24,000 nt of DNA from Prochlorothrix sp. (GTDB lineage: Bacteria; Cyanobacteriota; Cyanobacteriia; Prochlorotrichales; Prochlorotrichaceae), in contig JAYKJG010000348.1 of the NCBI GenBank assembly GCA_035286285.1, positions 1-24,000 on the forward strand, given 5' to 3'. The translations under genes were made by a program, and so were the position numbers. This document shows, piece after piece, positions 3,210 through 19,463 of this stretch. The notes beneath the pieces were generated by a model, which had not been told where the DNA came from, searched no databases, and saw only the letters and a list, made by a program, of their open reading frames with translations. Positions within the stretch are counted from its first letter, which is position 1. The number at the start of each line of letters is the position of its first letter.

Positions 3210-3283
3210 TCGGAGCGGCGGGATTTGAACCCACGACCCCCACTACCCCAAAGTGGTGCGCTACCAAGCTGCGCTACGCCCCG
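3210..3283 (-). tRNA. tRNA-Pro (anticodon GGG)
   Basis: The reverse complement reads CGGGGCGTAGCGCAGCTTGGTAGCGCACCACTTTGGGGTAGTGGGGGTCGTGGGTTCAAATCCCGCCGCTCCGA. The 7-bp acceptor stem CGGGGCG/CGCTCCG has one G-U pair. The D-arm is GCGCAGCTTGGTAGCGC. The anticodon stem is CCACT/AGTGG with loop TTGGGGT, giving anticodon GGG. The T-arm is GTGGGTTCAAATCCCGC. The discriminator is A and CCA is not encoded. Confidence 0.93.
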
Positions 3284-3769: not shown

Positions 3770-4609
3770 CTATCCCCGGTTCCAGGACACACCCTGGGCC
3801 ACTAGGATCTGTTCGGCCTTGGTTATCCAAGCAAAGGGGAAACCGGCATCACGGTAGAGGGTAGCCGGGATCTTGTCCTTAATTTCTGCATGGAACTGGG
3901 GCAGTTCGCTCCAGTGGCGGCCACATTGGACGTGGTGAGCCGTGTGGTAGCCCAGGTTGCAGGTGAAAAAGTTGTACCAGCGATCGGTGATGTTATAGGT
4001 CGCTTTGTAGGGATCTTCCTCATCCAAACCTGCATGGTGCTCATAGGTGACATAGGCCGTCATAAAGAGCAAAAATACCATGGGAAATACAAATTGGATC
4101 AGGGTATTGACCCAGTTCACGGAAGCCAGAGCCAAAAGAACGATCGCCGTTACTACCATGTTTTGGAGGAGCTTAACCCGGATTTTGGGATACTTTTCGC
4201 CCACCTTTAAGGCTTTAGGATAAGCTTGAGTTGTAACGGTCCAGGCATATTCTAGGGGGGGCATTGTCCGGCCTTTCTCGTCTTTCCAGGCGGACTCATC
4301 CTTGGTTTGGTCGAGGTAGTTAACGTGGTGACCAAAGGTATGGTGCAGAACCCAGGCTTCGCCGACAATTCCTGTTTGCAACCCCATCGCGAGTTCCAGG
4401 GCGCGATTGGCCCACTCTGGATAGAAAAACTTGAGGTGCTGGTGGTGGTGATTCCAGCAACAAATCCAACCCTTAATATTTAAGCTAATCAACATCCAAA
4501 TGATGGGGATAAGGGGGGAAGGGCTAAAGAAGAAAACCGCTAAATCGACTCCTAGCACCACAAGGATTGCTGCAATCAGATAAGCGTCTATTTTTTTTCT
4601 CAAGAACAT
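3770..4609 (-). CDS. Membrane di-iron fatty-acid desaturase/hydroxylase family protein
   Basis: Three histidine boxes are present (WNHHHQH, HHTFGHH, HTAHHV) with hydrophobic helices between them. The ORF track starts at 4675. I prefer the ATG at 4609 (MFLRKKIDAYLIAAILVV...), which sits just before the first TM helix. Confidence 0.85.
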   Translation of the reverse strand: MFLRKKIDAYLIAAILVVLGVDLAVFFFSPSPLIPIIWMLISLNIKGWICCWNHHHQHLKFFYPEWANRALELAMGLQTGIVGEAWVLHHTFGHHVNYLDQTKDESAWKDEKGRTMPPLEYAWTVTTQAYPKALKVGEKYPKIRVKLLQNMVVTAIVLLALASVNWVNTLIQFVFPMVFLLFMTAYVTYEHHAGLDEEDPYKATYNITDRWYNFFTCNLGYHTAHHVQCGRHWSELPQFHAEIKDKIPATLYRDAGFPFAWITKAEQILVAQGVSWNRG

Positions 4610-5279
4610 TGTGGACCAAAATGGATGAACAAGGTTGTCGCAATGATACGATCGGTATCCCACGATCGAGGGCAATCTAGGGATTCAGGAGCAAAATGTT
4701 CGCTCCCTGTCCTAACCCTGTGAGAGTCCCGGTCAAAAAGGAGACTGCCCCCTAGACGATCGCGAGGATTTCCGCGCTAAAGCAACATTGAGGTTGTTTT
4801 TCAAACACTGAAACTGCGTCAGATAGTGAAGCAACTTGATGTGTTCAGCGATGCCCCTAGGGACAATCCGCAGAGGGGTCAGATCGGCTCAGTTGAAAGA
4901 AAGGTCGATCGGCAAGGATAGCTCTGATTCCCAGCCATGGCAGGCCCCCGTCAAGATACAGCAAAAACACTGACAAGGGTCGGGGGAAGGTGGGAGCTAA
5001 ACAGCCCTAGGAATAATCTTTTTGTTATTGTAGGGGGTTTTGGGCTAAGGGGGGAGGGTTGGGAGCATCTCACTTTCCCAGGGTGCATCTGCAACCGTAG
5101 GACGTGACCCCCATCCCTCGGCCCCATCTACCCTTTGGGAGAAAGGGAACTCGATCTTTCCCCGTCCCTCGCCCCGGTCCCTAAGCGAAGTCGAAGGGGG
5201 GAGAGGGATTGAGGGTGAGGGCTTCTCAACCGGGGTACGCCCCTTGGGCGGGTTAAGCGCGTCAGTGGGAGCAATTCCC

Positions 5280-5300
5280 CCAGGGTTGCCCTGGTTTTGG
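5280..5300. terminator. Hairpin CCAGGG-TTG-CCCTGG followed by TTTTGGTT on the + strand, just beyond the stop of the minus-strand gene at 5313
   Basis: The 6-bp stem is perfect (5280-5285 / 5289-5294). The T-tract is on the + strand only. It could end the minus-strand gene without a U-tract, or end an unannotated + strand transcript from the 4676-5312 ORF-free region. Confidence 0.3.
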
Positions 5301-5312
5301 TTCCAGATGAAG

Positions 5313-6086
5313 TTAGGCTTTCCGGGACTCCCTGAGGCCAGTCCAGCCCATCAGAGCATAGCCGATCGCCAGCAGAAAGCTCGTGACCGCCGTGCGAACA
5401 CCCGCTTTAACCGCCCGCTCCTTGGCTTGGCGCTCCGCATTGCTTTTTTGGTCTTGAATCGTTTTCTCAGCTTCTTGACGACCGGCCTCAGCCTGTTGGG
5501 TCAAATACTCGTCTAGGCTGTTGGGTTGATCCCGAAACTGCTGGAGCAGGGTGGCCTCATCAACGGAAAGTTGGCCACTGCTGATGGCCTGGTTCAGTTG
5601 TTGCTCGTTTTTAATCAAGGCCGTAATCCGGGTGCGCTGCTGCTCAACTTGAGCCTTTAACTCCTCTTGGGCTTGGGTGGTGAGGGTGTCGGCCTGGGTT
5701 TGGATGCTTTCTAGGGTTGCAGCCCGTTCTGCAAAACTATTGCGCAGATGGAGGGGAACGCAGAGCAAAAAGAGGAGACTTAACAGACTGGCCAGCAGAA
5801 AGGCAAACATCCGCAGCGGCAGACGGGAGAGGGTCTGGCTGAGGGGGGTGGGCACCTGTTCCGCTGTCCAGTAGCCAACCAGCAATAGGGTCATGCCCAC
5901 CAAGGGAACAATGCCCCGATCGACGGCGGTCGAAACAACCTGCATTTGCCACTGTTGTTCCTTAAACTGGGGCCACAGCAGAAAAGCGGCGTAGTCTAAC
6001 AACACCGACAGCACCATAATGGAGCCAACCAAAGTCAAACTGAGGGGGGTAATTGAGGCCAGTTGTCGTTGACTGCCAGATTTCAT
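5313..6086 (-). CDS. Membrane protein with about 4 N-terminal TM helices and a C-terminal Gln/Glu-rich coiled coil (possibly HpsJ family)
   Basis: The long ORF has coherent TM plus coiled-coil organisation (LSLTLVGSIMVLSVLLDYAAFLLWP..., VDRGIVPLVGMTLLLVGYW..., then QAQEELKAQVEQQRTRITALIKNEQQLNQ...). I prefer the start at ATG 6086 (MKSGSQRQ...). The 46 codons upstream in the track ORF look non-coding. The HpsJ name comes from memory of similar cyanobacterial annotations only. Confidence 0.75.
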   Translation of the reverse strand: MKSGSQRQLASITPLSLTLVGSIMVLSVLLDYAAFLLWPQFKEQQWQMQVVSTAVDRGIVPLVGMTLLLVGYWTAEQVPTPLSQTLSRLPLRMFAFLLASLLSLLFLLCVPLHLRNSFAERAATLESIQTQADTLTTQAQEELKAQVEQQRTRITALIKNEQQLNQAISSGQLSVDEATLLQQFRDQPNSLDEYLTQQAEAGRQEAEKTIQDQKSNAERQAKERAVKAGVRTAVTSFLLAIGYALMGWTGLRESRKA

Positions 6087-10259: not shown

Positions 10260-10766
10260 TTGGCTTTACTGGAGAAGCCTGTGAATACCTTTGACTTTCT
10301 ACCTAAATTGCCAGAAGAACAGTGTCAGGCACTGAAGGATCAAGCCGCTATGATTCGGCGGCTATACTTGAAAAAACCGATCGGTCAGAGTAATGTTGCG
10401 ATCGGGGAGGTCTATTTAGCCAATGGCCTGTGCTTTGGGGCAGGGGCTACCTCTAAGCGTCAAAGTCCAATTCCGAAACCTCTACCCCGATCGCAAGGGG
10501 GACAATTTGAGCCAATCTGGGTTTCCTACAACGAGCGGATCATGGATACAGATGCTGAGTTGAAGGTCTTGGACGCAATTGCTACAACCTTGGCAACGCG
10601 CTACGATCGAAGCGTCTCCGGTTCTTTGTATCTCTACACAGAACTCAAACCTTGCCCCAGTTGTCGTGGGGTTATAGAGCAGTTTCAGGAAAGATTTCCT
10701 AATATCTGCCTTTTTATAGCCTGGGATATCACTTACCCTCCTATCACTTTGAGCAATTCCCTATGA
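10260..10766 (+). CDS. Small stand-alone deaminase-fold protein (polymorphic-toxin-type nucleic-acid/nucleotide deaminase-like)
   Basis: 168-aa ORF. D98-A99-E100 (10551-10559) and P131-C132-P133-S134-C135 (10650-10664) lie 32 residues apart. This matches the [HCD]AE ... PCxxC zinc and catalytic signature of the cytidine-deaminase-like fold. The following CRGVIEQFQERFPNI resembles toxin deaminase tails. No secretion or trafficking domain is present. The likely start is GTG 10281, preceded by GGAGAAG (10271-10277). Confidence 0.6.
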   Translation: MALLEKPVNTFDFLPKLPEEQCQALKDQAAMIRRLYLKKPIGQSNVAIGEVYLANGLCFGAGATSKRQSPIPKPLPRSQGGQFEPIWVSYNERIMDTDAELKVLDAIATTLATRYDRSVSGSLYLYTELKPCPSCRGVIEQFQERFPNICLFIAWDITYPPITLSNSL

Positions 10767-11671
10767 GTCACCCTGCCCCTCTTCAGCACCATACCTTCGC
10801 TGCTACCGACCTCCCCCAGTCCATCGTCTCCATCCTCAATCAGGTCAGTGAGTACCGCTATGGCGAATTGTATGAAGAGGGAGGAGACCAGAGTTTGTCC
10901 CTAAAGACTGCAATTAATTACGTTTTTGACGCTTTAGAGTCATCTAGGCCGCAAACCTATCCTCAGTTAAGCCAAGCTCGTTATATCTGGATGGCACTGT
11001 TGCTAAGTATTGCGGTCTGGCCCGGTTTGGAGTTTTACCAGCCCCAAAACCCCTGTCCCCAGGAAACCGTTAACCGTCTAGAGCTTTGGTTATATCTCTG
11101 GCGTTCTCTAAAACGTTCTCAGGATTGGGATGAGTTAGACACATTACTGGGACAAGAGCCAGATATCAGTCCTTGGGAAAATTGGCCAAAATACCCAGTC
11201 AAAGACTCCTGTCCTAGCCTACAGCTTGTTACCGATTGTATTTGGGCCTATGAAAATGCCCAAAGAACGCTAATACGAGCAGAAGCGCGTTCAGCCTGTT
11301 TCGATCTGGTGGAAAGCTGCCTAGAAGACTATGCCATCATGGCAGGCTCAGCCCAGCGTCGAGACCTGTTTGACTGGTGGCTCTGGGCTGTGATTCCCGC
11401 AACGTTGACTTTTTCTAAACCAAAATGGTGGTTTGAGCCACAGCACAACGCAAAAGCGGTATTTCTCTCCTTCTCTCCTAGCCTAGAGCAGTCTCTTAAA
11501 GCCCTTAAAGCGCTGATCTACTTCGAGTCAGCAGAAGTCTACAACCCGCCCCATCCTCCCCAGTCCCAGAGCTTGAACAAATCGAACAGATCGACCTTAA
11601 TCCTCCATAAACCTCAAATTTCAACTTCATTCACCCGTAGGCCCGACTGGACCCGCCAAAGACCGGCATAA
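10763..11671 (+). CDS. Hypothetical Trp-rich helical protein; candidate cognate immunity or antitoxin partner of the deaminase-like protein
   Basis: 302-aa ORF whose ATG (10763) overlaps the upstream TGA (ATGA). I recognise no motif. It is rich in W and acidic residues. Its last ~19 codons overlap the 3' end of the convergent ABC gene, so the true C-terminus is uncertain. Confidence 0.6.
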
Positions 11672-13398: not shown

Positions 13399-13544
13399 GG
13401 TTTAGGGATTTGCTAGGGAAATTACGGATATGCTTATCCTAGCTTGCTTGGTCGTTGCTGCTATTGTGGGCAGATTGCTCTGCGAGGGAGGTTAAGGAGA
13501 GGTGGGATCCCAGGGGCCGACGATCGCCTCACCTGTTTCGTTTC

Positions 13545-13640
13545 GTCATGCTCCTCACCGACTCCCCTAGCATCCGCGATGTCATCGCCTTTCCCCTCCT
13601 CCGCCCCGAAAAAGCTACGATTGCTGATGGTAATGTCTAG
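13545..13640 (+). pseudogene. lysS: Orphan 3'-terminal fragment of lysyl-tRNA synthetase (last ~30 codons only)
   Basis: It translates to [51 protein letters not shown] is the conserved class-II LysRS C-terminus (compare E. coli ...[22 protein letters not shown]). No synthetase body lies upstream, where sequence runs into the divergent ABC gene promoter. A GGGGG-AGCTG-CCCCC hairpin followed by T-rich sequence sits at 13686-13716. Confidence 0.7.
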
Positions 13641-13755
13641 CCCGCTGAGGTGAATGCCGAATCGTGATCGTTCTCCGCTATAATTGGGGGAGCTGCCCCC
13701 TTAACCTTATTCTTTCAGCCTTTAATTGTCCTACTCACACCTACTAGAGGCTCCT

Positions 13756-14877
13756 ATGGGACTTCAAGAAGAACTAGAGCAAAAACGCCAAGAAATTCGG
13801 ACAGACTCTTACTCTATGTCCGTCGGAGAATTGATCAGTCTTTACCAAGGAAAGGAAATTGAGATTCATCCCCAGTTTCAACGGTTCTTCCGATGGTCTA
13901 CAACCCAGAAAACCCGTTTTATTGAGTCTCTCTTGATTGGTTTGCCGATTCCTCAGATTTTTGTCTCTCAGAGGAAGGATGGAGTGTGGGATGTTGTGGA
14001 TGGCCTACAGCGACTGTCTACGATTTATGAGTTTGTTGGGATTCTCTGCGATGAAACAGGTGAACGGAAAGCACCCTTGATCTTGGAGCAAGGGGAAACA
14101 CTACCATCCCTGAAGGGTAAAAAGTGGGAGGATGGCTATGATCCTGATAACTCCCTAACAAAGGCTGAGCGCCTCTTGATCAAGCGGGCCAAGCTGGAGG
14201 TTGCTATCCTAGTCCAAGGGAGCGACCCGAATGCACAGTATGAATTATTTCAGCGTCTCAATACAGGCGGATCGATTGCGACGGACCAAGAGATTCGCAA
14301 CTGTCTTCTCATTATGGCGAATCCAGATACCTATGACTATATCAAGGATCTCAGTAGCAATGAGCACTTCAAAGACTGCATTGCTTTATCTGACAAGGCA
14401 AGCGCTGAACAGTATGATTTAGAGCTTGTTTTAAGATTCCTGCTCTTTCGGACCATTCCAGAGGAGAAGCTCAAGAAGATTCCATATCCCGACATCAGCG
14501 ACTACCTCACCTATTGTATCCGTCAAGAGATCATTAAGGATCCCGATGACTATGAACGGGATAAGGAAGCCTTCACCACAACCTTTGCCTTGCTAGCGGG
14601 AAGCCTTGGCGATCGCAGCTTCCGGAAGTACTATCCTGCGCAAGATCAGTTCAAAGGAGGCTTTCTCGTCTCTGCATTTGAAGCGATCGCCTTGGGTATT
14701 GGTTACAACTACGATCGGCTCTGTACCCAATCCCTTGACCTAGAGGCAAAGGTAAAAGACCTCTGGCATAATCCGTGCTTCACCAATGCCTTAGGTGGAT
14801 CCTCCAAAGGTAGCATCAGCACTCGCAAGCGATTACAAACGATCTTACCCGTAGGGCGGGAACACTTTAAGGTATGA
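13756..14877 (+). CDS. DUF262 domain protein (ParB-like/GmrSD N-terminal NTPase-type domain) without a DUF1524 nuclease domain
   Basis: Motifs are IHPQFQRFFRWSTTQKTRFIESLLIGLPIPQIFV and WDVVDGLQRLSTIYEF, the DUF262 QR...W / DGxQR signature. No His-Me/HNH motif is visible in the C-terminal ~230 aa. I prefer the start at ATG 13756 with tagagg upstream; the track start is 13726. Confidence 0.85.
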   Translation: MGLQEELEQKRQEIRTDSYSMSVGELISLYQGKEIEIHPQFQRFFRWSTTQKTRFIESLLIGLPIPQIFVSQRKDGVWDVVDGLQRLSTIYEFVGILCDETGERKAPLILEQGETLPSLKGKKWEDGYDPDNSLTKAERLLIKRAKLEVAILVQGSDPNAQYELFQRLNTGGSIATDQEIRNCLLIMANPDTYDYIKDLSSNEHFKDCIALSDKASAEQYDLELVLRFLLFRTIPEEKLKKIPYPDISDYLTYCIRQEIIKDPDDYERDKEAFTTTFALLAGSLGDRSFRKYYPAQDQFKGGFLVSAFEAIALGIGYNYDRLCTQSLDLEAKVKDLWHNPCFTNALGGSSKGSISTRKRLQTILPVGREHFKV

Positions 14878-15524
14878 GCAAGGTTCGGACTCTGGAGGAT
14901 CTTAGCAACCGCTTGAATGACGATCTGACTTGGCGTAAGCGGGAACTATCTAAACTAAAGGCAATGATTGAAACTGAGCGGTCTGATATGGAGCGCAGTC
15001 GTGTTTTGTTACGGAGTGGCTTGACTCTGTTATATGCCCATTGGGAAGGCTTTATTAAAGAGGCCGGGTCACTATACTTGGAGTATGTGGCAATGCAACG
15101 GCTCAACTACGATCAACTGACTAGTAATTTTCTGGCACTGGCTTTTAAGAAACGTCTAGCGGAGGTGAATGAGACCCATAAAGCAACTATCTATACCACA
15201 AGCTTAGACTTTATCCGGTTTCAACTGTCTCAACGTAGCCAGATACCCTACAAAGAAGGTATAAGAACTGGATCCAACCTTTCTTCAGAGGTACTCAAGG
15301 AGATTATTTGTATCCTGGGATTAGAGTATGACTTCTATGAAACGAAGCAGAAACTGATTGACACAAAACTGCTTGCAAAGCGGAATCAGATTGCCCATGG
15401 TGAATACTTAGACCTAGATGCTGAGGACTATGCAGCACTACAGAAGCAAATTATCACCATGATCGATCACTTTAAAGCTCAAATTGAAAATAATGCTTCT
15501 CAAGAAAAGTATAAATCGCCCTGA
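14874..15524 (+). CDS. HEPN-type predicted RNase (resembles the MAE_28990/MAE_18760 HEPN-like nuclease family)
   Basis: 216-aa all-helical ORF with the Rx4H motif in AKRNQIAHGEY near the C-terminus. Its ATG overlaps the DUF262 stop (ggtATGAgc, 14874-14877). Confidence 0.8.
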   Translation: MSKVRTLEDLSNRLNDDLTWRKRELSKLKAMIETERSDMERSRVLLRSGLTLLYAHWEGFIKEAGSLYLEYVAMQRLNYDQLTSNFLALAFKKRLAEVNETHKATIYTTSLDFIRFQLSQRSQIPYKEGIRTGSNLSSEVLKEIICILGLEYDFYETKQKLIDTKLLAKRNQIAHGEYLDLDAEDYAALQKQIITMIDHFKAQIENNASQEKYKSP

Positions 15525-15873
15525 TCCCATAACTCTAATATGAACTGCTTGTAATACTGAAGTAGCTCAGACTAAATAAAGGGAGGTATGGGCTACAGCA
15601 GAATAATAGTTTCAGCGACCTTAAGTGCCCATTACTTTCCCCGATCTACTTATGCTTACATCAACACCCGATGGCATGACTGCTTCTTACTCCTTGCTCA
15701 CCCAAACCCAGTAGCATATTTTTCCCTAGGCGCTCCAACGCCTTCTGTCTCCCTGGGTACTCCAGGGGCCTTGCACTGGACACAGAGCCTCTGAAAGACG
15801 TTCCTGCACTGAGCCGGGGAACGAGAGAACAGACAGTACTGACAGCTAGCATCTCCCCCAGCTTAACTTTGGC

Positions 15874-16668
15874 TTAACTGGACTCCAGGTGAGGGTCTGT
15901 TTGGAGGATCGTCAGGATCTCAGTTTCAAATGCTTGTGCCTGGGAACAGCATTGCTTAAGATTTTGCCAATTTTCGGTGACTTTTGGTGCATAAACCCGA
16001 TAATTTCGGACACTTTTCTTGATTCGTTGTTGTTTTGGCAACTGCGCTAGCCGTTTCTCAACCTTGGGATCGCATTCACCCCCTTGCAAACAGGGGTGAC
16101 TTGGCGGTAGGACCGCAGTTGCTAACCAAGTACCCGAAGATTGGGCAGGTAAGCAGAAACAAGTTTGGTTTCCTGGTATTGCCTGTCCTAGCCAACTCCG
16201 AATGACTTCTAGAAGTGAGGTAACCGTTGCGGACACTGGGGGACATGGCTGCTGACAAGGCAGGCACTTCCAAGCGTTGTCTTGAGCCATCTTTGAGAAA
16301 TAAGGTTCATCCTTGGGATCGTAGTCTTGATACTCAAAGCCTCCCACATCTACATCTACGTGAATAATCAATAAGTCAAAACAAGCCAGGGTTGGATCAA
16401 AATCGAGAGAGCCTTGATGTCGCTTTTGAGTCTCGTGGCACCATTTGGCGACCCCGCCCCAACCTGTCCCTAGCCGGGGCTGAGTGGCCTCTGGTTGCAG
16501 TAAGGTCAGGACAAAGGGATTGGGTAAAATTGCCTTGAGAGCAGCCTGAATCACTTCTAAATCCCCTGGTCCTTCAGCAACTAAAGCAATGCGTAGAGTT
16601 CTATTGAAGAGCTTGGGGAGGATGGTAGACTGTTTGCTGGGCAGCGTTGGATCTGTGGCCTCAGACAT
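15874..16668 (-). CDS. TOPRIM-like protein (DUF4276/DUF4435/RloB-like) with a Cys-rich insert
   Basis: Near the N-terminus is RIALVAEGPGDLEV (an EG..D/E motif). About 70 aa later comes LLIIHVDVDVGG (an acidic DxD cluster), as in OLD-type TOPRIM partners of ABC ATPases. The insert reads WKCLPCQQPCPP...CFCLP...HPCLQGGECDP. I prefer ATG 16668, which overlaps the ATPase stop by 8 nt (ATGTCTGA). The track start 16683 is a TTG. Confidence 0.65.
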   Translation of the reverse strand: MSEATDPTLPSKQSTILPKLFNRTLRIALVAEGPGDLEVIQAALKAILPNPFVLTLLQPEATQPRLGTGWGGVAKWCHETQKRHQGSLDFDPTLACFDLLIIHVDVDVGGFEYQDYDPKDEPYFSKMAQDNAWKCLPCQQPCPPVSATVTSLLEVIRSWLGQAIPGNQTCFCLPAQSSGTWLATAVLPPSHPCLQGGECDPKVEKRLAQLPKQQRIKKSVRNYRVYAPKVTENWQNLKQCCSQAQAFETEILTILQTDPHLESS

Positions 16669-17890
16669 GGGGGACGGCTCCAAGGTGGCCCATTAGCCAC
16701 AGGCGCGAAAGGGGATACTGTTGGTTGAGATCCAGCAGTTGGGCGTTGAGGGTAAGGCGTTGGATGACAGTTTGGCCGTTACTATTACGATCGACGGCAA
16801 ACAGACGCACCTCTGGATCGCCTAGGTCCAGACCATCAAGGGCAGCCGGGTTATGAACCGTAAAGAGAATCTGGCGATCGGGGCTACTATGAACTAACCA
16901 ACTGGGCAAACGGGTGATTAGTGCCCTCAGCAGGCGGGGATTGAGGGCTTGATCGAGATTGTCGATCGCTAAGGTTTGGGGGGCTGGGGGCAATAGGCAC
17001 AGTAGCGCGGTAAACAGAATATACAGTGCCCCTTCACTGGCATCGTAGGCAGTCAATTCATTGCGGCTTTTCTGCATAAACCGATCGCTAAATTTCAAAA
17101 TTTCTTTGGTACGGGGAACCTTCGGGGAGAGGAGTTTTGCCCCATACCGAATCGTCTCGATGTCGGCTACCCAGTCAATTAGCTCTAGAATTTGCTCAAA
17201 AATGACTTCTGACTGGTTTTCAGAAGCCATTGCAAGGTCTTTTGAGTCACTGTCGGCTTTTGCCTCAAGATATTGCCGAAGACTTGCAAACCCCTCCGCC
17301 AGTTGACCGCCATTGAGTCCTACGGGAGTGCGGGACTGCTGATCAGGAACAATCCCCCGTAGGGTTGGTGTGTTAGGGCAGTAAATGGCAAAGTCTCGGA
17401 GTTGCTGTATGAGTTGGTTTGCAGGGCTGTCGCGTGCCAAATTGACCAGTTGTAGGGCCGCGAGTCCTGCTTGGGGATTGAGATTTTTCTGACTTCGCAC
17501 ACCACTGGCAATAATCTCAGTGGTGCCATCATGGAGCACTTCTGTTTTATAGGACCAGGCTGGATCAGGGGAATCAATGGGATTGAGGAGGGAAACCCGG
17601 TAAAAGGCTTGGCTCTCGCTAGTGGCCTCGATCGTGATGTGGGGAGGAGTGCGATCGGACCGAAAGGAGCTTTTATAGAGCCGTGGCAAGCTAGCCCGAA
17701 CCCCGCGCCGGAGCAAACTTTCATCGTCTACAACGCCATTGGCAGCGGCTCCCAGAACCCCAAGGGCTTCTAAGACATTACTTTTGCCGACTCCATTGGC
17801 TCCAATCAAACAGTTCAGCCGACCCAGTTCCAACTTGGCCTGGTAAATAGACTTGAAGCCCTGAATTTTAACCTGGCGAATCATGCCCAT
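16661..17890 (-). CDS. ABC/OLD-type AAA ATPase (AAA_21/AAA_15-like, COG-type 'predicted ATPase')
   Basis: Motifs are IQGFKSI...LNCLIGANGVGKSNVLEAL (Walker A), SEGALYILFTALL (signature-like), LAIDNLDQALNP (Walker B/D-loop), ILFTVHNP (H-loop) and the C-terminal LSRLWLMGHLGAVP. Confidence 0.88.
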   Translation of the reverse strand: MGMIRQVKIQGFKSIYQAKLELGRLNCLIGANGVGKSNVLEALGVLGAAANGVVDDESLLRRGVRASLPRLYKSSFRSDRTPPHITIEATSESQAFYRVSLLNPIDSPDPAWSYKTEVLHDGTTEIIASGVRSQKNLNPQAGLAALQLVNLARDSPANQLIQQLRDFAIYCPNTPTLRGIVPDQQSRTPVGLNGGQLAEGFASLRQYLEAKADSDSKDLAMASENQSEVIFEQILELIDWVADIETIRYGAKLLSPKVPRTKEILKFSDRFMQKSRNELTAYDASEGALYILFTALLCLLPPAPQTLAIDNLDQALNPRLLRALITRLPSWLVHSSPDRQILFTVHNPAALDGLDLGDPEVRLFAVDRNSNGQTVIQRLTLNAQLLDLNQQYPLSRLWLMGHLGAVPHV

Positions 17891-17895
17891 AGTCG

Positions 17896-17939
17896 CTGTG
17901 GTGGGTCGTTGAAGACTACTGTGGTGGGTTATCGAAGAC
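17896..17939. promoter_or_regulatory. Two 21-bp direct repeats (23-bp period) immediately upstream of the ATPase start codon
   Basis: The copies are ctgtggtgggtcgttgaagac (17896-17916) and ctgtggtgggttatcgaagac (17919-17939), identical at 17 of 21 positions. The first copy ends 5 nt from the start codon at 17890. Function is unknown. Confidence 0.35.
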
Positions 17940-18101
17940 CCTTTGCATCATACCCTACTTGAATCTTGTTTAAGGGACAGGCTTTTGGGAGAGTATAGGG
18001 CAAGGCTATGGACTACCCTAAAGCAGGGGGTGCGGGTTTCCCGCCTACGATGCTTGGACCTCGGTCTAATCTCTTCCAGTTTGGCAGCATAATAACCGTT
18101 T

Positions 18102-19463
18102 ATGAGCGACTCCCGTCTTGATCCTGTAACTGCAACGCATTCCCTGCTGGCGCAAACTCAGCAGCATTTGCAAGCGCTGTTGCAACGCTATCAAGCCCAA
18201 ACTCAAGCCCAGCCCCGATCGGCCCATACCCCACCTAACCCAACCCTGGGAGCCAGTTACCAAGGCCAGATCGATCGCCTCAGTACCCTAGTGCATAAAC
18301 TAGAGCAGCGGATTGTGACGATCGCCGCCTTTGGCTTGGTCAGTCGGGGCAAGTCGGCGGTGCTGAATGGGTTGCTGGGGCAGAAGTTGTTGGAGACCGG
18401 GCCGATTAATGGGGTGACGCGGTGGCCCCAGACGGTGCGCTGGAGTGGGCCACAGTTGGGGGGATTTCAGGTGGATTTAGTTGATACACCGGGTTTAGAT
18501 GAAATTGAGGGGCAAAGCCGGACAGCTATGGCGAAAACCGTGGCTCAACAGACGGATTTGATTTTATTTATTGTGGCGGGGGATGTGACCCGCACTGAGT
18601 ATGAGGCCATCCAAACCCTCCTCCAGTTCCAAAAGCCGATTCTGTTGGTGTTTAACAAGACAGATCTCTATCCCGTGACCGATCGGGCTGAAATTTTAGC
18701 AAAATTGCGTCAATTTTTGGTTAACCAAGGGGAAACTGCTGAATCTCTAACGTTATCCACCGCCGATGTTCTCCCTGTTGCCGCAGAGCCTGCCCCGCTC
18801 CAGGTTCGCATTGAAGATGCAACGGGAACCGTAACCCAAACCTGGGAAACCCCAGCGGCCCAAATGGGGGAGTTGGCCGATCGGCTCAGCCAAATCCTCC
18901 TCCAGGAAGGAGAACAACTGCTCGCCCTCAATGCTTTGGTCCAGGCCCGCAGTGCGGCGGAAACCTTAGCGCAGGTCCAAATTCAGACCCAAAATGAGCA
19001 AGCAGAGCAGGATTTGAGTCGGGTTGTCTGGACTAAGGCGGCGGCGATCGCCCTCTGTCCGGTGGGGCTGGGGGATTTGGCCGTGGGAGCGGTGCTGGAT
19101 TTGGTGGCGGTGCGGACCTTGGCCCAGCGCTATGGGTTGCCGATGACGCGGCATCGGGTGGGGCGACTGTGGCAGCGCTGGTTGGCCAGTGGGGCGATTT
19201 TACTGCTGGGAGAGGGGTTGAGCCAGGGATTTTTGGGCTTGAGCTTGGGGGAGAGCGGTCTAGCGGCCTGGGGTGGGGCGGGGCTAGTGCAGGGGCTGGC
19301 AGCGGCCTATGGAGGCTATCAGGTGGGCCGATCGGCCCAGGTCTATTTACAGGAGGGTTGTACCTGGGGGCCGGAGGGTGCAAGCTGGCTCATTGAGGGG
19401 ATTTTGTGCCAAGCTACGCCCCAGGGGGTCATTGCCCGGTTACGGCAGTTGGGGGCTGGCTAA
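18102..19463 (+). CDS. GTP-binding protein with a C-terminal Gly/Ala-rich hydrophobic (DUF697-like) region
   Basis: G1 is GLVSRGKSAVLNGLLG, G3 is DLVDTPG and G4 is VFNKTD. The C-terminal ~130 aa are hydrophobic (AAAIALCPVGLGDLAVGAVLDLVAV...). Confidence 0.85.
   Translation: MSDSRLDPVTATHSLLAQTQQHLQALLQRYQAQTQAQPRSAHTPPNPTLGASYQGQIDRLSTLVHKLEQRIVTIAAFGLVSRGKSAVLNGLLGQKLLETGPINGVTRWPQTVRWSGPQLGGFQVDLVDTPGLDEIEGQSRTAMAKTVAQQTDLILFIVAGDVTRTEYEAIQTLLQFQKPILLVFNKTDLYPVTDRAEILAKLRQFLVNQGETAESLTLSTADVLPVAAEPAPLQVRIEDATGTVTQTWETPAAQMGELADRLSQILLQEGEQLLALNALVQARSAAETLAQVQIQTQNEQAEQDLSRVVWTKAAAIALCPVGLGDLAVGAVLDLVAVRTLAQRYGLPMTRHRVGRLWQRWLASGAILLLGEGLSQGFLGLSLGESGLAAWGGAGLVQGLAAAYGGYQVGRSAQVYLQEGCTWGPEGASWLIEGILCQATPQGVIARLRQLGAG

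Follow-up and report, generated by a model that had tools for sequence, protein, structure and literature searches.

The locus at positions 13756 to 15524 of the DNA analysed here raises the question of what a DUF262 protein does when it lacks the DUF1524 nuclease domain and is followed by a small stand-alone HEPN protein. The window, by which we mean the whole stretch of 24,000 nucleotides that was analysed, belongs to contig JAYKJG010000348.1 of a Prochlorothrix sp. assembly, and the two genes are called A and B below. In our judgement it is probable that they form a self-contained and horizontally mobile two-gene anti-phage cassette of the 'DUF262 + MAE_28990/RiboL-PSP HEPN' type, with A sensing infection and licensing B. 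Phage defence by such a pair is suggested by analogy with PD-T4-2, for which protection against phage T4 has been published, and which is the only experimentally validated, distant representative of the type. The pairing itself was already known, and the locus in the window is a new and well-preserved cyanobacterial case of a known defence type.

Domain content and conserved motifs of the two proteins

The genes, domains and motifs of the cassette are as follows, with the motifs placed by translation.

13756 to 14877, forward strand: gene A, a predicted ParB-like DUF262 nucleoside triphosphatase (NTPase) of 373 amino acids, from the open reading frame and Pfam
Residues ~28 to 185 of A: DUF262 NTPase domain (Pfam GmrSD_N)
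Residues ~186 to 373 of A: helical C-terminal domain, NsnA-C/'ParBDB'-like, without DUF1524
13879 to 13896, forward strand: motif I of A, QRFFRW (QRxxxW)
13999 to 14013, forward strand: motif II of A, DGLQR (DGxQR), the predicted NTP-binding and hydrolysis centre
14248 to 14262, forward strand: motif III of A, FQRLN (FxxxN)
14874 to 14877, forward strand: ATGA, the stop/start overlap of A and B (translational coupling)
14874 to 15524, forward strand: gene B, a stand-alone all-alpha HEPN protein of 216 amino acids (MAE_28990/RiboL-PSP families), the predicted ribonuclease (RNase) effector
15033 to 15050, forward strand: conserved motif YAHWEG of B
15273 to 15287, forward strand: conserved motif SNLSS of B
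15381 to 15398, forward strand: catalytic-type HEPN motif RNQIAH (Rx4H) of B, residues 170 to 175

We placed the start of A at the ATG at 13756, where its homologues begin with MGLQEE, and an in-frame TTG at 13726 was rejected as the start codon for this reason. Pfam recognised GmrSD_N/DUF262 (PF03235) at residues 28-185 with E = 4.1e-23 and no other domain at E ≤ 1 in the whole protein, and the C-terminal half scanned alone gave no match at E ≤ 10. Neither of these scans returned a DUF1524 or other His-Me signal, and an alignment of 27 homologues contained no invariant or near-invariant histidine in residues 186-373. The original prediction, which had been made from the nucleotide letters and their open reading frames, had seen no His-Me motif in A, and that observation holds. 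The 120 best homologues of A, which are about 325-415 amino acids long (mostly 365-380), also carry PF03235 only.

The QR...W and DGLQRLST motifs by which A had first been recognised as a DUF262 protein were confirmed by translation, the latter at 13999-14022. Among the 27 homologues, Q42, R43, F44, F45, R46 and W47 are invariant in motif I, D82, G83 and R86 in motif II (with Q85 at least 90% conserved), and F165, R167, L168 and N169 in motif III. Across the 119 loci compared in this work, QRxxxW was found by regular expression in 112, DGxQR in 115 and FxxxN in 116. The role of DGxQR as the NTP-binding and hydrolysis centre of DUF262 proteins is taken from the literature (PMC10952713, PMC12065111).

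Among the PADLOC models, NsnA matched A at 6.4e-62 (208 bits), aligning residues 11-363 with profile positions 41-375 of 385; PD-T4-2_A (PDLC04027) matched at 3.9e-32 (109.7 bits; profile positions 39-338 of 363), and the SspE model and the BrxU-type models HEC-05 and HEC-06 gave marginal matches. Because PADLOC aligns A with NsnA over its full length, the C-terminal half of A corresponds to the helical NsnA-C domain, which Zhang and colleagues named ParBDB and regarded as DNA-binding (PMC12065111). NsnA-type proteins, which combine ParB-DUF262 with the DNA-binding ParBDB, have been proposed to be phage-DNA sensors (PMC12065111). The name 'split GmrSD' that had been given to the locus thus fits in part: a DUF262 protein without DUF1524 is indeed followed by a HEPN protein, but the label is imprecise, as A is closer to NsnA and PD-T4-2_A. 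The identity of A as a GmrSD-family enzyme was rejected because DUF1524 is missing. An AlphaFold2 model of A (predicted local distance difference test, pLDDT, 82) had BrxU, SspE and ParB/Noc as its best folds in the PDB, and the PHROG family phrog_2598, whose function is unknown, matched A over its full length at 3.7e-76. No NCBIfam model was found for A or for B, and profile searches against PDB sequences found no solved relatives of either family.

The identification of B as a HEPN protein with RNQIAH was upheld by two full-length Pfam matches, HEPN_MAE_28990 (PF18737; E = 2.7e-42, profile positions 3-211 of 211) and HEPN_RiboL-PSP (PF18735; E = 4.6e-40, profile positions 1-191 of 191). In an alignment of 25 homologues, R170, N171, A174, H175 and G176 are invariant in and directly after the HEPN motif, and the same is true of Y54, H56, W57, E58 and G59 in YAHWEG and of S134, N135, L136, S137 and S138 in SNLSS. 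The Rx4H motif was present in 116 of the 119 loci. The AlphaFold2 model of B (pLDDT 89) has eight helices, and its best fold match in BFVD is a phage 'MAE-28990/MAE-18760-like HEPN' protein (template modelling score, TM, 0.66-0.68). The PHROG family of unknown function that matches B, phrog_22325, does so over the full length at 3.8e-56. The B family comprises 2575 clusters (50% identity) at E ≤ 1e-3 and 1874 at E ≤ 1e-10; the best 150 clusters are nearly all stand-alone proteins of about 210-230 amino acids, with a few shorter fragments. Both A and B have hundreds of full-length homologues, and because the motifs are invariant across them, the observation of A and B lies far beyond chance.

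Pairing, co-inheritance and carriage of the two genes

A ends and B begins in a shared ATGA at 14874-14877, so that the coupling of A to a 216-residue B that had been read from the sequence is correct. This arrangement is common in the family: the overlap measures 4 nt in 72, 1 nt in 24 and 8 nt in 7 of the 119 loci, and a stop/start overlap exists in at least 103 of them. The survey of co-occurrence was centred on B. A profile of B searched against one genome per GTDB species gave 515 relatives, and the best 80 of these, which were examined, are all cyanobacterial and come from 80 different species. In all 80 genomes a homologue of A (48-68% identity) lies directly upstream of B on the same strand. 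A also stands upstream of B in 37 of 37 viral contigs from IMG/VR, where B is 26-41% identical, and in 10 of 10 plasmids from PLSDB. The hosts of these plasmids belong to Bacillota, Actinomycetota, Gamma- and Alphaproteobacteria and Spirochaetota, and the genera include Bacillus, Corynebacterium, Psychrobacter, Leptospira, Enterobacter and Roseomonas. The A-B pairing is obligate in every locus examined, and the co-occurrence for which the original prediction had suggested a gene-neighbourhood survey is found in cellular genomes, viral contigs and plasmids alike.

The pairwise distance matrices of A and B are correlated with r = 0.97, a value that none of 999 permutations reached, and B has evolved about 1.1 times faster than A. 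Therefore, the two genes are passed on together, by descent as well as by transfer, and do not show the effector shuffling of Menshen systems. The composition of the locus is in agreement with horizontal carriage. The GC content is 47.1% in A and 42.5% in B, compared with 54.2% in the window and 56-58% in the flanking ABC exporter and GTPase genes, and the cassette is compositionally foreign.

Two of the plasmids deserve a separate description. The Enterobacter cloacae plasmid CP056768.1 (loci L084 and L081; 5724 bp) is a mobilizable Col-type replicon, most of which is taken up by the A-B cassette, mobilisation genes and a RelE/ParE toxin-antitoxin pair. Its A gene crosses the origin of the record, and its proteins are 46% (A) and 31% (B) identical to those of the window. 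A blastn search of all complete E. coli genomes with this A homologue gave no hit. In the Bacillus cereus plasmid NZ_CP016597.1 (locus L082, 348-6825), the cassette lies between a type II restriction endonuclease of the BsuBI/PstI family and an AAA-family ATPase, and a GIY-YIG gene is found upstream of the BsuBI/PstI-family enzyme. This is a plasmid-borne defence-island setting. IMG/VR lists the same replicon as the 'viral' contig L090, with an identical length of 71854 bp.

A and B were found in a single frame of 585 amino acids (…PLGRERSIFYCMKVRTAEQL…) at locus L063 (from the isolate genome of Fortiea sp. LEGE XX443, NZ_JADEXZ010000023.1, ~3888-5650), the only such case in the 119 loci. The joined frame reflects a natural fusion or else an error in sequencing; as an in-frame fusion it may give a weak hint that A and B associate physically.

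No conserved third gene or methylase was found beside the 80 cyanobacterial cassettes. Even the most frequent neighbours are shared by no more than 14 of the 80 loci, and most of them resemble lineage-specific housekeeping genes by sequence; the flanking genes of the window recur beside the cassette in at most 4 of the 80, and then weakly (25-42% identity). This result bears on the idea that the locus encodes a restriction-like system that targets DNA, in which A would be a ParB-like nuclease or nickase acting on (possibly modified) phage DNA and B an accessory or back-up, and immunity would be direct rather than abortive. Anantharaman et al. (2013, PMC3710099) used the wording 'ParB nuclease' for the partner of MAE_28990 and reported DNA methylases in some of these operons, the DUF262 enzymes GmrSD, BrxU and SspE act on modified DNA (PMC10952713), A has BrxU and SspE as its closest structural neighbours, and one homologous cassette (L082) adjoins a type II restriction enzyme. 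However, in the characterised DUF262 enzymes it is DUF1524, absent in A, that does the cutting, and DUF262 is the NTPase or sensor part (PMC10952713). Moreover, the motifs of B are conserved as strongly as those of A, so that B does not look like a dispensable accessory, and the methyltransferase that might be expected is not a conserved neighbour. We therefore consider a restriction-like role of the cassette to be quite improbable.

Proposed mode of action and damaged copies

In the anti-phage reading that we prefer, A would bind phage DNA through its ParB-like DUF262 domain and its helical NsnA-C/ParBDB-like domain and thereby act as the infection sensor. A may then change its conformation as NTP is bound or hydrolysed at the DGxQR centre, and this switch would license B, in which the Rx4H residues are predicted to form the RNase site. 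HEPN active sites typically form across a dimer. Once activated, B would cleave host and/or phage RNA and halt the production of phage, and growth arrest of the infected cell, that is, abortive infection, would be the probable cost. The original prediction had likewise proposed a swap of the effector from a DNase to a HEPN RNase with a possibly abortive outcome, and the scheme given here would accommodate that proposal. A more general version, which we offer tentatively and regard as rather doubtful, is that the MAE_28990-type branch works as a DNA-to-RNA relay, in which phage DNA is recognised by a ParB-like NTPase acting as a clamp or switch, which then activates a HEPN RNase directly, without a transducer ATPase or a second messenger. 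We know of no system for which a relay of this kind has been demonstrated.

The same gene pair could be imagined as a toxin-antitoxin or addiction module. B would then be a constitutive HEPN RNase toxin and A its antitoxin, acting by binding B or by an NTP-dependent modification as in MNT-HEPN systems (MNT, minimal nucleotidyltransferase), and the module would stabilise plasmids or prophages, with defence at most a side effect. HEPN proteins are the toxins of MNT-HEPN systems, and NTPase-type antitoxins have been proposed for the related pairs of MAE_18760 and ParA (Anantharaman et al. 2013, PMC3710099). The order of the genes with the putative antitoxin first, the translational coupling and the carriage on small plasmids such as the 5.7-kb Enterobacter Col plasmid with RelE/ParE would also fit, and strict co-inheritance of A and B is equally expected of a toxin-antitoxin module. 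The damaged copies of the cassette argue in the opposite direction. At four loci an intact B with Rx4H stands beside a broken A, which is degraded in L072, interrupted by an in-frame stop in L083 (the Leptospira noguchii plasmid NZ_CP091939.1), truncated after residue ~171 in L010 and interrupted by an internal stop in L041. This combination should be lethal if B had to be neutralised by A, and such copies seem hard to square with A as an essential antitoxin. In addition, A is large (373 amino acids) and has all the NTPase motifs and a DNA-binding-type domain common to the sensors NsnA, SspE and DndB, and the related PD-T4-2 came out of a selection for phage protection and protects in its native host (PMC9519451). 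We thus regard an addiction module as unlikely. Together with the A-B fusion, if that is natural, the loci that keep B intact beside a damaged A are consistent with a role of A as a positive activator that B requires, and not as an antitoxin.

Three further loci are damaged. In L029 A is likewise disrupted beside an intact B, in L066 all three motifs of A are mutated, and in L021 the histidine of the HEPN motif is replaced by tyrosine (RNMIAY); all seven damaged copies seem to be decaying.

Several observations weigh against the anti-phage reading and the role of A as an activator. The cases with a broken A are few, some of them come from low-coverage metagenome-assembled genomes, and, since B is translationally coupled to A, it might fall silent as well when A is no longer translated. 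The fold matches of A in the PDB are weak (E 5e-3 to 1e-2, TM 0.2-0.3), and a Foldseek search of the PDB with B turned up no HEPN structure at a significant level, HepT toxins appearing only at E~2. Because of this, the HEPN assignment of B rests on the Pfam profiles, the Rx4H motif and the all-alpha model. The window B also gave no match at E ≤ 1 to the 168-position PADLOC model PD-T4-2_B (PDLC04028), and four plasmid homologues of B likewise did not match it. The relation to the validated PD-T4-2 therefore appears to be distant, and it is drawn from profile matches and published HHpred tables.

Neighbouring genes in the window and comparison with known systems

Around the cassette, two features of the window are relevant.

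13399 to 13755, forward strand: upstream intergenic region, which presumably bears the promoter of the A-B operon
15874 to 16683 and 16661 to 17890, reverse strand: two genes of a PDC-M31 pair, a PADLOC candidate system downstream of and convergent to A and B

A promoter scan found no sigma-70-like site upstream of A, and the one terminator-like hairpin, at 13684-13704, is no more than would be expected by chance. The PDC-M31 pair consists of a 409-residue ABC-type ATPase (PDC-M31A, 2.7e-186 in PADLOC) and a 269-residue protein (PDC-M31B, 9.5e-97). Two metagenome contigs (L122 and L125) that are 99-100% identical to the window lack exactly 15559-18137 (2.6 kb), and in them B directly precedes the GTPase gene. 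In the window, 71 nt at 15647-15717 are a remnant copy of the 5' end of this gene (91.5% identical), and the GTPase gene of the window has a different 5' end. The segment 15559-18137 is thus a clean presence/absence polymorphism of an independently mobile module, whose insertion point is the 5' end of a gene. Because it is missing from nearly identical contigs that keep B, the PDC-M31 pair is separate from and independent of A and B.

This bears on a Menshen-like explanation, in which A would be the sensor of a sensor-ATPase-effector system that uses the neighbouring ATPase pair at 15874-17890. A is NsnA-like, and the 409-residue ATPase has a weak match to NsnB (4e-15). However, the ATPase pair is encoded on the other strand and is far better matched by the PDC-M31 models, it is absent from all 80 related cyanobacterial loci, and the two contigs described above are precisely without it. 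We find this explanation hardly credible.

About 2 kb upstream of the cassette, a 168-residue protein with a BURPS668_1122-type toxin deaminase domain (PF14424, 5.1e-13) is encoded at 10260-10766 on the forward strand, and its gene overlaps by 4 nt with an open reading frame of 302 amino acids at 10763-11671 on the same strand, which had no match in Pfam, PADLOC or PHROG. The GC content of this gene pair is 0.48-0.50, below that of the window, and the two genes may encode a toxin with its immunity protein or some other conflict module. At 3210-3283 on the reverse strand there is a single tRNA-Pro(GGG) gene, which lies away from the cassette; no link between the two was seen.

Among the known systems, GmrSD, BrxU and SspE share with A the N-terminal DUF262 domain with QRxxxW, DGxQR and FxxxN, and BrxU and SspE are its nearest solved folds. 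These enzymes carry the DUF1524 His-Me nuclease in the same protein, whereas A lacks it and the predicted effector of the cassette is a separate HEPN protein. The HEPN-MNT system (HepT/MntA) resembles the cassette in that a small stand-alone Rx4H HEPN protein comes second, after an NTP-using partner. Its partner, however, is a minimal nucleotidyltransferase, whereas that of B is a ParB/DUF262 protein in which Pfam finds no nucleotidyltransferase domain, and B resembles HepT in structure only at a non-significant level (E~2).

The NsnA protein of Menshen aligns with A over nearly the full length, including the ParBDB region, and A scores higher on the NsnA model than on PD-T4-2_A (208 versus 109.7 bits). 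Menshen, however, depends on two downstream components, NsnB (an ABC ATPase with DUF3696) and NsnC (inPIN and effector) (Millman 2022; PMC12065111), whereas the sole partner of A is a HEPN protein, no transducer ATPase is present and no shuffling of the effector is seen (r = 0.97). Membership of Menshen was rejected since the gene downstream of A encodes a HEPN protein and NsnB and NsnC are absent from the operon.

B is a full-length member of the MAE_28990 family, the type protein of which is from Microcystis aeruginosa, likewise a cyanobacterium. The association of DUF262 with HEPN that the original prediction had mentioned is on record: Anantharaman et al. (2013, PMC3710099) listed the MAE_28990 and RiboL-PSP HEPN families as 'in operon with ParB', and that paper contains no functional test. 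Some of the operons reported then include a DNA methylase, whereas neither the window locus nor the 80 related cyanobacterial loci do so. The accompanying statement that no functional characterisation existed is outdated. Vassallo et al. (2022, PMC9519451) recovered PD-T4-2 ('DUF262, HEPN', two coding sequences) from E. coli ECOR65 in a selection with T4; it protects against T4 natively and in K-12, and its deletion from ECOR65 restores T4 plaquing. By HHpred, PD-T4-2A was assigned to PF03235 and PD-T4-2B to PF18735 (97.8%) and PF18737 (96.9%) (PMC9519451). Reviews place PD-T4-2 among the DUF262 systems without DUF1524 and call it uncharacterised (PMC10952713, PMC12065111). Our literature search found no mechanistic study of PD-T4-2, MAE_28990 or RiboL-PSP, and DARNA, a system whose description mentions PD-T4-2, was set aside as a different HEPN system.

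The window cassette belongs to a well-conserved branch of at least 1874 protein clusters (E ≤ 1e-10); plasmids and phages carry members of it, and it is abundant in cyanobacteria. The PD-T4-2_B model of PADLOC v2 misses this MAE_28990-type branch, including 9 of the 10 IMG/VR homologues of B tested, so that inventories of cyanobacterial defence systems likely under-count such loci. The only match to this model, at 1.5e-4, came from an intermediate homologue (L114) about 32% identical to B. With two full-length proteins, all catalytic motifs and a strict two-gene unit, the cassette offers clean material for studying how a ParB-like NTPase may control an RNase. Its closest validated counterpart differs from it in size and host, as both open reading frames of PD-T4-2 take up 1540 bp and the cassette measures 1769 bp in a cyanobacterium, and agrees with it in plan: in both there are two co-oriented genes, a DUF262 protein without DUF1524 is encoded first and a small HEPN protein second, and the HEPN proteins of both belong to the same two Pfam families, PF18735 and PF18737.

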